Part shown: one piece after another, positions 12,589-53,595 of the stretch
How positions within the stretch are numbered: position 1 is the stretch's first letter
Layout of the letters: every line of letters starts with the position of its first letter
NCBI RefSeq assembly: GCF_964213995.1
Contig: NC_135805.1
Span: 41,726,001 to 41,790,000, forward strand
Origin: Mustelus asterias
Lineage: Eukaryota
Length of the DNA: 64,000 nt
Direction: 5' to 3'
The notes under the pieces: model-generated
Databases searched by the model: none
Told to the model about the DNA's origin: nothing
What the model saw: the letters and a program-made list of their open reading frames with translations, nothing else
Program-made: the position numbers and the translations under genes

Positions 12589-12689
12589 AACCAAAAGAGA
12601 AAATGCTGGAAGATCTCAGCAGGTCTGGCAGCATCTGTAAGGAGAGAAAAGAGCTGGCGTTTTGAGTCCAGATGACCCTTTGTCAAAGC
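12589..12689 (-). mobile_element. Single arm of the short HHR-bearing Penelope-derived element
   Basis: Homologous to the left arm of 31838-32031; flanked by CATGAAT(C/T)TGTC at 12574-12585 and 12689-12700. Confidence 0.8.
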
Positions 12690-30483: not shown

Positions 30484-30955
30484 GGGTGGAATTTTATGAC
30501 CTCATTGCGCCTGTTTTGCAGTGGGAAAATATCGTAAAATTGGATGTGATGCGACTCGTGGGATGGCACCTGTTTTTGTGCCCATTCCCATTTTACCAAG
30601 AAAAAAAGAATTGGCATGATCAGGACCCTGCTCAAAATGGGCAAAGCATTAATTTGCATTCTTTTGCATCCATCACAATGTCATTAGTGAGCTTCACTCC
30701 CAATCATCCCAGCTCACCTGGCTGAACCACCTCCTTCGCTGCGGCTGATCAGTCAGGAAAACACCTCATGTATAAAAGTCGCATTCGGACGTTTGTGTAG
30801 AGAGGATGAGCGAGGAGGTAAGTTTCTGCTTTCAAACTGCTCTGTGCTGCTCGGGGCTTGGCGGGGGGGGGAACAGGGGGCTTGTTTTGTTGCAGCCATG
30901 GTGTGTTTTGGGTCGGGAGGGGGCCTGTGAGTGTGTGGGGGCTGGGGGCTCTGTT
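30484..30955. mobile_element. Truncated PIF/Harbinger-like element, followed by an isolated V-SINE head at 30961-31015
   Basis: Starts GGGTGGAATTTTA, identical to the TIR of the MITE at 36757. Confidence 0.55.
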
Positions 30956-31797
30956 GTTCACAGGTCCCTGGTGCTGTCAGGCAGCAGTGCTAACCACTTT
31001 ACCACCATGCCGCCCATAAGATGGCAGCATCCTGTTAATAAAAATGCCACTTGTGTTGCTTTTGCATTGCAGCTGCTGCTCAGATTTTTGAGATACTTTT
31101 GAGATACTTTACACTTCCAGGGTAATTTGAGAGACGAGGCACTTTTCACATCTGAAGGTGATAACTTTAGGCTCATTTGTGAGAATGTGTGATACACATC
31201 TCGTAGTTATCTGATCAGGGTAGTTATTATCCAGCAGGATAGCTTTGGCGCACACTATTTCACCTTTTCCATGCAGTATAAATTGTTGCTCCCTTTGAAA
31301 TTTGGCATTCTTGTGTCAATTCTGATGGGTGCTAAATGAAAAGATTCAATAGTATGCCTTTTTTTTTCATTAATACTCAAGTTTGGACAAAAAAAGGACT
31401 TGTTGGTCCATCAAGCCAGTCCCCTATTGTTGAGGTGTGTTATATCCTTAAGAAATAGATACCCCCTACCCAGTGGGGAGCAGAGACAATCTCCTGGGAG
31501 AAGAGAAAAATCAGGTGAGTGAATCTGCTTGACTGAAAGATGTTGAACCTTTAATAACTGCATTGGTTGAGCTATCATTTTGGTCACCAAAAATCAACTA
31601 TATAAGGCACTTGTAATAAAATAAAGCCTGCAACTTTATTGAGTGCACCTGTTTACTCTGCAATGATCTTCTTTCTTAGCCTCCCCGAACAAGCTTAAAC
31701 AAATGTTTATGCTCTATAACAGGCAGCTCCAATTAAAATGGTGGTGGGGGAGGGGTTGTTAACTATTGGCTGCCATTTTGAATACAATAATCTGCAC

Positions 31798-32035
31798 AAA
31801 ATAAAAGCAAATGACTGCGGATGCTGGAATCTGGAACCAAAAGAGAAAATGCTGGAAAATCTCAGCAGGTCAGGCAGCATCTGTAAGGAGAGAAAAGAGC
31901 TGATGTTTGGAGTCCAGACGACCCTTTGTCAAAGCTCTGACAAAGGGTCATCCAGACTCAAAACGTCAGCTCTTTTCTCCCCCTACAGATGCTGCCAGAT
32001 CTGCTGAGATTTTCCAGCATTTTCTCTTTTGATGG
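31798..32035. mobile_element. Palindromic short Penelope-derived element with two back-to-back HHR motifs and a 13-bp TSD
   Basis: Inverted repeat 31838-32031 centred on AGCT (31933-31936); CAATAATCTGCAC at 31785-31797 and 32036-32048. Confidence 0.85.
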
Positions 32036-32178
32036 CAATAATCTGCACCATCCACTTATGGGAATGATCTTATTTCCAGGGAGATGCAGCTTCCTTGGAG
32101 ACAGTTTATAATCATAATCTTTCTGCAAGTGCACATGTCTGAGGTAAACCACTGTTAAGCTTATTGCCTGAGTATGTG

Positions 32179-32387
32179 TGTGTGAGACATGCCTGGGCAT
32201 GCCCCTGCCGGCCCTGCCTGAGACTCCTCCCCCCTCCCTGGTCCAGGTATAAAGGTGACTGCTCCCCACCCCCCTGCCTCAGTCTCTGGACCAGTTCATC
32301 AGCATGGGTGTGCTCCAAGTCTTTTGCGAATAAAAGCCTATTTGTTTTTGCATACAAACTAGTCTTTGCTTGATTGATAGTGCATCA
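32179..32387 (+). mobile_element. Solo LTR (Gypsy-like)
   Basis: TG...CA termini, TATAAA at 32248, AATAAA at 32329, flanks ATGTG/ATGTC. Confidence 0.7.
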
Positions 32388-33014
32388 ATGTCTTCATCCC
32401 TTCTACTGACTACCACATGTGCCTGGAAGAACTTTATAAAAATTGACTTTTTGATAGCCCAGCGAGCTTTTAATACAGAAGCAGAGACCAGATCTGATTC
32501 TGAGATGGCTGCTGAAAACAGGCATTAGGCCTTCTGTGTACCTTGACACTGTCCTTTCTTTTAAGATCCCTCTGCCAAATTAAGGTGACCTGAGTGAGGT
32601 AAATCAAAGTATTACAGATTAAACTTTTGAAATGTCTCAGCTGCAGTTTTCATTTCTCAAGTATTGACCACGCTAAGGAATTCATCAGTCACTTTTTCAA
32701 TGCATGGTACCTGGCGTTATAAAGACAATAAACTTAACAATTGAGAGCAGTGCTGATTTCCAACCATTGATAGTGCCGACCACAAGTTTCCAGTTTACTG
32801 TCAGTATATATCCAAGCTGCAGGTGTAAATGCTTAACCCTCCTTGCCCAGTGCAAACGGAGGCATTTGACCTGTGCAAAAAATAACTTGTATTAGTTTGT
32901 TATGTATGTTGGGGCATGCCCCTTTAAGAGAAAGGCTCAGATGACATGGGCTTCAAGCTCCACCCTGGGTGGAGCTTGCCTAGCCAGTCTTGTGCTGACT
33001 GTGCTAGGATTATT

Positions 33015-33065
33015 GGCGGCATGGTAGAACAGTGGTTAGCACTTCTGCACTGTAGGATTCTATGA
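33015..33065 (+). mobile_element. Micro-SINE: HE1 5' end fused directly to its 3' tail
   Basis: ggcggcatggtagaacagtggttagcact + tctgcactgtaggattctatga. Confidence 0.7.
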
Positions 33066-33095
33066 TAAGGACATGTTAATAAAAGTTAAGAAATA

Positions 33096-33393
33096 GCACG
33101 GTGGCACAGTGGTGATGTCCGCTGCCTCACAACACCAGGGACCCGGGTTCAATTTCCGGCTTGGGTCACTATCTGTGAGGAGTCTGCACATTCTCCCTGT
33201 GTCTGTGTGGGTGCTCCGGTTTCCTCCCACAGTCCAAAAGATGTGCTGGTTAGGTGCATTGGCCATGCTAGATTCTCCCTCAGTGTACCTGAATAGGTGC
33301 CAGAGTGTGGTGACTAGGGGATTTTCACAGTAATTCCACTGCTGTGTGAATGTAAGCCGACTTGTGACTAATAAATACATTTTACTTTACTTT
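33096..33393 (+). mobile_element. V-SINE type B
   Basis: Head, V-domain and type-B tail. Confidence 0.9.
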
Positions 33394-53484: not shown

Positions 53485-53595
53485 GAACTGGCGAAGGCCG
53501 ATGCCAAATGTCAACATTAAGTTGTCTTTCTTTACAGATGCTGCCTGAATTGCGAAGGGTTTTCAACAATACCTGTTCTGCGTCAGATTCCCATA
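53485..53595 (+). mobile_element. Very decayed relative of the short HHR/Penelope element
   Basis: ctggcgaagg...tacagatgctgcctga...cagattcc aligns loosely with the right arm at 31937-32030. Confidence 0.5.

Follow-up and report, generated by a model that had tools for sequence, protein, structure and literature searches.

Inverted pseudo-LTRs (pLTRs) together with a one-sided tail are described as standard for Penelope elements, and the same source treats the origin of the inverted ends and of the tail as an open question (PMC8557442). In the accounts given of EN+ Penelope-like elements (PLEs) with inverted pLTRs (PMC3846280, PMC8557442) the insertions have head-to-head pLTRs, a tail of 30-40 bp at one end, a target-site duplication (TSD), a palindrome at the junction and a TATA motif in the pLTR, and these features were also recognized here, the TATA motif in the parent and the others in the insertion at positions 31785..32048 of the window (the whole stretch of 64,000 nucleotides that was analysed). 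Inverted pLTRs with a tail have already been published and this locus adds another example of such insertions; it differs from the described ones in that it has no ORF and both of its arms stop on one nucleotide.

Regarding the enzymatic process the closest system is PAc, the Poseidon element of Anolis (Frangieh et al. 2024, PMC11167929), where two internal RT start sites bound the tail, just downstream of the hammerhead at the pLTR/ORF junction, an arrangement that appears here as well. In vitro both target strands were cut and extended by PAc, the strands showed the same start-site use, ribozyme cleavage was not needed and the protein was predicted to be dimeric; in the main text of that paper inverted insertions are not connected with two-strand extension, nor is the pairing of start sites within one event addressed. 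The family described here belongs to a different clade than PAc, with a Neptune-type Cys linker.

In L1 twin priming both target strands prime on the element RNA and the inversion is joined by microhomology; one start lies at the poly(A) end, the other is internal and random, and the two parts do not overlap. Two-strand priming and a microhomology-joined inversion are shared with the route proposed below for Penelope, whereas in the window family both starts are fixed and internal, and the two cDNAs would copy the same stretch.

For metazoan PLEs, minimal type-I hammerheads have been described (Cervera and de la Pena 2014, PMC4209133) that share with the motifs in the window a short helix I, a bulged base ahead of stem II and a palindromic minimal helix III. 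For Schistosoma PLEs that work gives a U3-A8 core variant and opposite-strand motif pairs 100-700 bp apart, whereas the two motifs of the window overlap by 4 bp and both copies are mutated. Non-LTR retrozymes (bioRxiv 10.64898/2026.07.22.740005; PMC7229834) are likewise PLE-derived, hammerhead-bearing and non-coding as inserted, but they are reported in the bioRxiv text as head-to-tail tandems with two same-strand ribozymes, and in the window the arrangement is head-to-head with one ribozyme per strand. Neither a two-strand explanation nor a description of this family was found in the openly accessible literature, which was the range of the search.

Layout of the insertion and its hammerhead motifs

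The inverted repeat (31838-31934 and 31935-32031) has no spacer, is centred on AGCT at 31933-31936 and matches its reverse complement in 87 of 97 positions, and the 13-mer direct repeat around the insertion occurs exactly twice in the 64-kb window (31785-31797 and 32036-32048). On either strand the arm was numbered with +1 at the A of AGCT, and the features are collected in Table 1.

Table 1. Features of the palindromic insertion and of the second family member in the window
Feature	Position	Strand	Remarks
Target-site duplication, left copy	31785..31797	+	exact over 13 bp, extendable to 22 bp with 3 mismatches
3 additional bases between TSD and long arm	31798..31800	.	parent differs past +136
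Long arm, +1 to +136, pLTR end / ORF start of Neptune-type parent (assigned by Cys linker)	31801..31936	-	sense on minus strand
Penelope 'tail', 37 nt, +100 to +136	31801..31837	-	on left side only
Minimal type-I hammerhead, minus arm	31898..31936	-	U3-A8 kept, G12 lost (31909), stem III palindrome broken
Shared AGCT, +1 to +4 of both arms, helix I 5' strand	31933..31936	.	323 exact centred junctions in family
Short arm, +1 to +99	31933..32031	+	sense on plus strand
Minimal type-I hammerhead, plus arm	31933..31971	+	C3/A8 mismatch, G12 lost (31960)
4 bases separating short arm from exact TSD	32032..32035	.	sequence
Target-site duplication, right copy	32036..32048	+	13 bp exact
Second family member, lone short arm, about +101 to +2	12589..12689	-	without mirror arm

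The extension of the left TSD is partly microhomology with the arm end, and the three bases at 31798..31800 are likely to be untemplated or slipped. The long arm is 92.6-94.2% identical to both pLTR copies of the full-length element L316, and the short arm 90-91%. The 37-nt tail would correspond to the interval between two reverse-transcription start sites. The shared AGCT is the family-wide cDNA stop point and would also be the annealing site of the two cDNAs. The locus itself is an inert insertion.

On both strands a helix I, the core, a bulged A, a 5-bp stem II, the GAAA position, a minimal stem III and an NUH could be identified. Neither arm has GAAA any longer: at +28, which is a CpG in the family, the plus arm shows 31960 G>A and the minus arm 31909 G>C; additionally, the stem III palindrome of the minus arm is disrupted by +33 G>A. 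The core is not CUGANGA, since the family has a U3-A8 pair, of which the two arms retain different states (Table 1). An intact minimal type-I core is absent from the 31838-32031 copy with G12 gone from both arms, and both hammerheads are predicted from these changes to be inactive. The Rfam scan of 31000-33000 gave no hammerhead match up to E=10; the Rfam miRNA models that appeared below the gathering score are hairpin artefacts. As RNA the palindrome folds with -155.8 kcal/mol, a z of -19 relative to 200 shuffled sequences, and imposing the hammerhead fold within it costs 37.6 kcal/mol; according to this modeling the motif in a transcript across the palindrome would be buried in the hairpin.

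In the family as a whole the 3-8 pair, GAAA, NUH and helices I and II of a minimal type-I hammerhead are all present. Among 238 motifs of the fetched loci the 3-8 pair is U3-A8 in 164, C3-G8 in 42, C3-A8 in 29 and U3-G8 in 3 cases, and GAAA was found in 80 of the 109 family arms listed. The fetched loci also contain two or more further families of minimal hammerheads, in which stem III is of AGCU type and the ends of helix I differ, and which probably belong to other Penelope families; with their different helix I ends these offer a natural control for the annealing idea.

An earlier note on this DNA had described a spacerless palindrome with arms of about 97 bp centred on AGCT, an exact 13-bp TSD, a hammerhead layout on both strands and the loss of GAAA in both arms at a CpG, and all of these were reproduced; the family itself has GAAA, in 3752 exact matches to the arm. 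The U3-A8 core, the 37-nt tail on the left and the stem III change of the minus arm do not appear in that note. Its further claim, a unit that is ribozyme-competent on either strand, does not hold for the window copy, with G12 lost in both arms and the folding cost given above.

The parent element and its family

Upstream of the read-through arms a 3' UTR, a GIY-YIG C-terminus, a C-X4-C-X2-C linker (in L153, L170 and L174) and an RT with YRYIDD were recognized. The GIY-YIG domain was detected by Pfam with E=0.0026, which is below the curated cut-off, and the RT stretch had no match in Pfam. In natural copies the RT is followed by the C-terminal GIY-YIG, as in EN+ PLEs; pLTRs with a hammerhead in each flank the ORF of the parent, and its insertions have the one-end tail, the inverted 5' copy and the TSD of this group. 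Three of 30 RT-anchored loci (L315, L316, L317) are full-length, with the arm at the 5' end continuing into the ORF; L316 and L317 have the arm at both ends, 3250 nt apart in L316. In these three copies the reading frame of the arm is open across the hammerhead and the tail without an in-frame ATG, and translation of the parent likely needs a non-AUG start or splicing. A CX2-5CxxC linker between RT and EN is given as the mark of Neptune, and Nematis is reported to have the same linker (PMC8557442). On the basis of its Cys linker we assign the parent as a Neptune-type PLE of about 3.25 kb, and the arm, judged from its sequence context, as the pLTR/ORF junction of this autonomous element. In L170 a SINE-like stretch of 128 bp (633-760) has many copies that are 98-100% identical, which suggests a young repeat family.

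Of 167 upstream stretches considered, the majority being junctions that lack parent sequence, 22 of subfamily A and 2 of subfamily B have a TATA motif at -30, and in 2 it stands at -29. The promoter of the D. virilis Penelope is described as TATA-less (PMC2377424).

The genome searched comprises 3.68 Gb. The DNA search gave 3977 candidates, and all 40 scored matches were near-full palindromes, a biased view of the family. Exact counts gave 3752 arms in which stem II and GAAA are intact, about 8300 arms by the downstream anchor and 323 AGCT-centred junctions, next to 3539 junctions that read through into upstream parent sequence; the pattern for the latter was looser and of different length, and the ratio of the two is a rough one. 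A sister subfamily with the canonical CUGACGA core has its own AGCT palindromes (41 loci, 6 of which were read).

For a less biased picture of the arms 97 of the first 100 listed downstream-anchor sites (contig C1, first 16.4 Mb) were classified; the anchor is independent of the junction, and some insertions are counted twice in this sample. Ten arms belong to perfect palindromes, 44 to other adjacent inversions and 5 have a distant inverted partner; 16 are single arms stopping at -5 to +4, 15 read through and 7 are truncated inside. For 37 of the 97 arms no inverted partner was detected, namely for 16 that stop at -5 to +4, 14 that read through and 7 that are truncated inside, which means that two-strand priming is not obligatory or its product is not always retained.

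In 23 of 23 variable columns listed the majority base is the same for long as for short arms. Variants are shared between the two arms of an insertion more frequently than in permuted pairs (26 against 14.0, p=0.001, 72 pairs), many of them at CpG; such sharing is expected from one template, and gene conversion could add to it. A +5 T>C skew of the short arms was considered as the mark of a palindromic master and discarded: in 42 perfect palindromes it was 12 against 2, but 11 of these 12 cases came from the BLAST set, whose query carried C, and outside the BLAST-picked set it was 1 against 1. A +5 C on one arm occurs in 5 of 50 centred junctions listed and in 0 of 100 read-through junctions listed. 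Three separate insertions (L252, L253 and L254; contig C1, 7.68, 7.84 and 10.99 Mb) have one 18-nt junction filler in common; it occurs only in these three, the flanks are unrelated and the long and short sides are swapped among them. This sharing shows that some junctions were copied and not formed anew, and a recopied palindrome or junction conversion between neighbours is a possible source. A common spliced leader at the junction was also considered and rejected, as the shared filler has only three occurrences.

Arm ends and the origin of the head-to-head pairs

The 3' ends of the 97 arms are bimodal: 48 are at 94-109, 47 at 133-136 and 2 between, so that long and short ends are about 37 nt apart. 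Among 121 head-to-head pairs 20 were unclassifiable and 101 could be classified, 98 of them as long+short, 2 as long+long and 1 as short+short; leaving out the 30 BLAST-picked loci the rule held in 64 of 67 pairs. This pairing was counted for the present family, whereas the published accounts propose self-priming or EN resolution (PMC3846280, PMC8557442). TSDs with a median of 14 bp were found in 64 of the 98 long+short pairs, against 0-1 in five shuffles.

The 5' ends of the same 97 arms are concentrated at the first base of helix I: 29 are at +1 and 47 at +1 to +4 (p about 2e-39 against a uniform distribution), with 6 at +3. A further 24 ends are upstream of +1, 18 of these at -14 or further. 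Only 1 of the 97 is at +36, the end of the ribozyme cleavage product, and ribozyme cleavage was rejected on this count as the source of the junction. This single end belongs to L237 (contig C1, 13.03 Mb), in which the shared AGCT joins +36 of one arm and +1 of its partner. Contigs from three other organisms have loose ends at the three places where the arms of this family end, and +1 recurs among contigs as a joint; these contigs are guessed to be RNA and show junctions, not transcript starts.

Taken together, the insertion at 31785..32048 is a 5'-truncated inverted Neptune-type Penelope insertion, one of hundreds of this sort in the genome, and was probably made on site by two RT events, one for each cut strand. 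Priming from both strands, in the manner of PAc, appears likely, and +1 may well be the start of the parent RNA, as the peak of the 5' ends and the TATA spacing, the two observations that bear on it, suggest. The parent RNA would start 30 nt downstream of the TATA box, on the base with which helix I of the hammerhead begins. The RT-GIY-YIG protein would cut both target strands about 14 nt apart, one target 3' end would prime inside the RNA at about +136 and the other at about +99, and both cDNAs would run off the 5' end of the RNA after about 100-140 nt, so that both would end in AGCT. Annealing of these self-complementary ends and fill-in would give the spacerless palindrome, the one-sided tail and the TSD. 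Less complete cDNA runs would result in asymmetric junctions with fillers, and RNAs primed in the downstream pLTR in read-through copies. The ribozyme would be a passenger, its cleavage at +35/+36 not setting the junction, and the palindromic stump would be a dead end in most cases. A more extended version can be put forward tentatively: a dimer might prime the far site on one strand and the near site on the other, the thousands of strong-stop cDNA stumps might map the 5' end of a TATA-driven RNA, and an occasional recopied palindrome might seed a non-autonomous lineage. If this is true, two-polymerase integration accounts in a single step for the TSD, the one-sided tail and the inverted pLTR.

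The +1 site is also a candidate splice acceptor (YAG at +1/+2), and two-strand priming could be combined with a +1 that is a processing or stalling point, either a 3' splice site between AG and CT or an unusual cleavage. A pyrimidine tract and YAG precede +3 in both subfamilies, the open arm frame lacks an in-frame ATG, and in D. virilis the Penelope intron is described as ending at helix I (PMC4209133). However, the peak is at +1 (29 ends) and not at +3 (6), the arms that start at +1 show no common upstream exon, no recurring exon joint is found among the contig joints listed, and the 30-nt TATA spacing is kept in both subfamilies despite the diverged sequence between, which makes a processed +1 unlikely.

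Fold-back or self-priming of one cDNA or antisense RNA, with the mirror arm copied from the first and one end trimmed by an endonuclease to leave the tail, has been proposed for rotifer Penelopes: the palindromes at head-to-head junctions were read as self-priming (PMC3846280) and the tail was attributed to EN-mediated resolution (PMC8557442); it is also in agreement with the variants shared by the arms of one insertion. Nevertheless, 17 of 50 pairs consist of arms that both contain sequence missing from their partner: the long arm lacks at least ten 5' bases present in the short arm, and the short arm lacks the tail. In 13 of these 17 the short arm begins at +1 to +3, and a later deletion is an unlikely source since it would not respect this start. 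Furthermore, a 4-nt AGCT needs a loop to fold back and the parent has no longer palindrome there, and short 3' ends are found on single arms too, so that fold-back is regarded as more doubtful still than a processed +1.

Least probable is a fixed palindromic non-autonomous family of SINE or retrozyme type, its 235-nt unit copied by the Penelope protein, for which the 323 exact centred junctions, the near-full palindromes among all 40 scored BLAST matches and the filler common to three insertions of one contig could be cited, but the perfect palindromes (10 of 97 arms) lie within a continuum of junctions, 42 perfect palindromes show no fixed difference between long and short arms, the read-through parent junctions number 3539 by their looser pattern, the second subfamily produces the same shape, retrozyme-like tandem repeats are missing and the hairpin buries the ribozyme. 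The palindrome is very probably not a SINE or retrozyme family: it does not consist of head-to-tail tandem units with same-strand hammerheads, and a fixed unit with its own consensus and lineage was not recognized, the three copies that share one junction being the exception.

From the origin that the earlier note had suggested for the palindrome, the connection to Penelope was strengthened, as the arm corresponds to the 5' end of the pLTR/ORF of an autonomous 3.25-kb element, and a single insertion event with a TSD and AGCT as the joining point are supported. The non-coding SINE/retrozyme-like family of about 240 bp that it proposed was given up, with an arm that comes from an autonomous element, junctions that vary widely and long and short arms that agree in their majority bases, and so was fold-back priming, which cannot produce two arms both containing sequence missing from their partner. 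Of the AGCT-centred palindromes with TSDs that it proposed to count, the centred junctions and the TSDs of the pairs are there, but perfect palindromes are a minority of the arms.

The family supplies thousands of natural products with two sharp rules, namely the long+short ends and the stop at the first base of helix I, and these rules make the question of Penelope ends testable in a simple in vitro system. It should be emphasized that in annotation such stumps would pass for MITEs, miRNA hairpins or retrozymes.

Neighbouring repeats in the window

The second family member in the window (12589..12689) is flanked by a 12-bp TSD-like repeat with 1 mismatch. The question whether the short arm of the insertion is a chimera with the sister subfamily was approached through its 16 genome matches, which by eye are mostly sister-subfamily copies; judged from the bases of the loop, CpG decay from the L315 state would explain it as simply as a chimera.

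Copies of a tRNA-SINE-like repeat (30954-31019 and 33010-33152) lie inverted about 2 kb apart and flank the palindrome. The stretch at 32140-32389 contains TATA and AATAAA motifs and resembles a solo LTR; its 250 bp are 92% identical to a segment of L031 that adjoins a gag-like frame. An old fragment related to the downstream part of the arm (73% identical) is located at 53522-53591.
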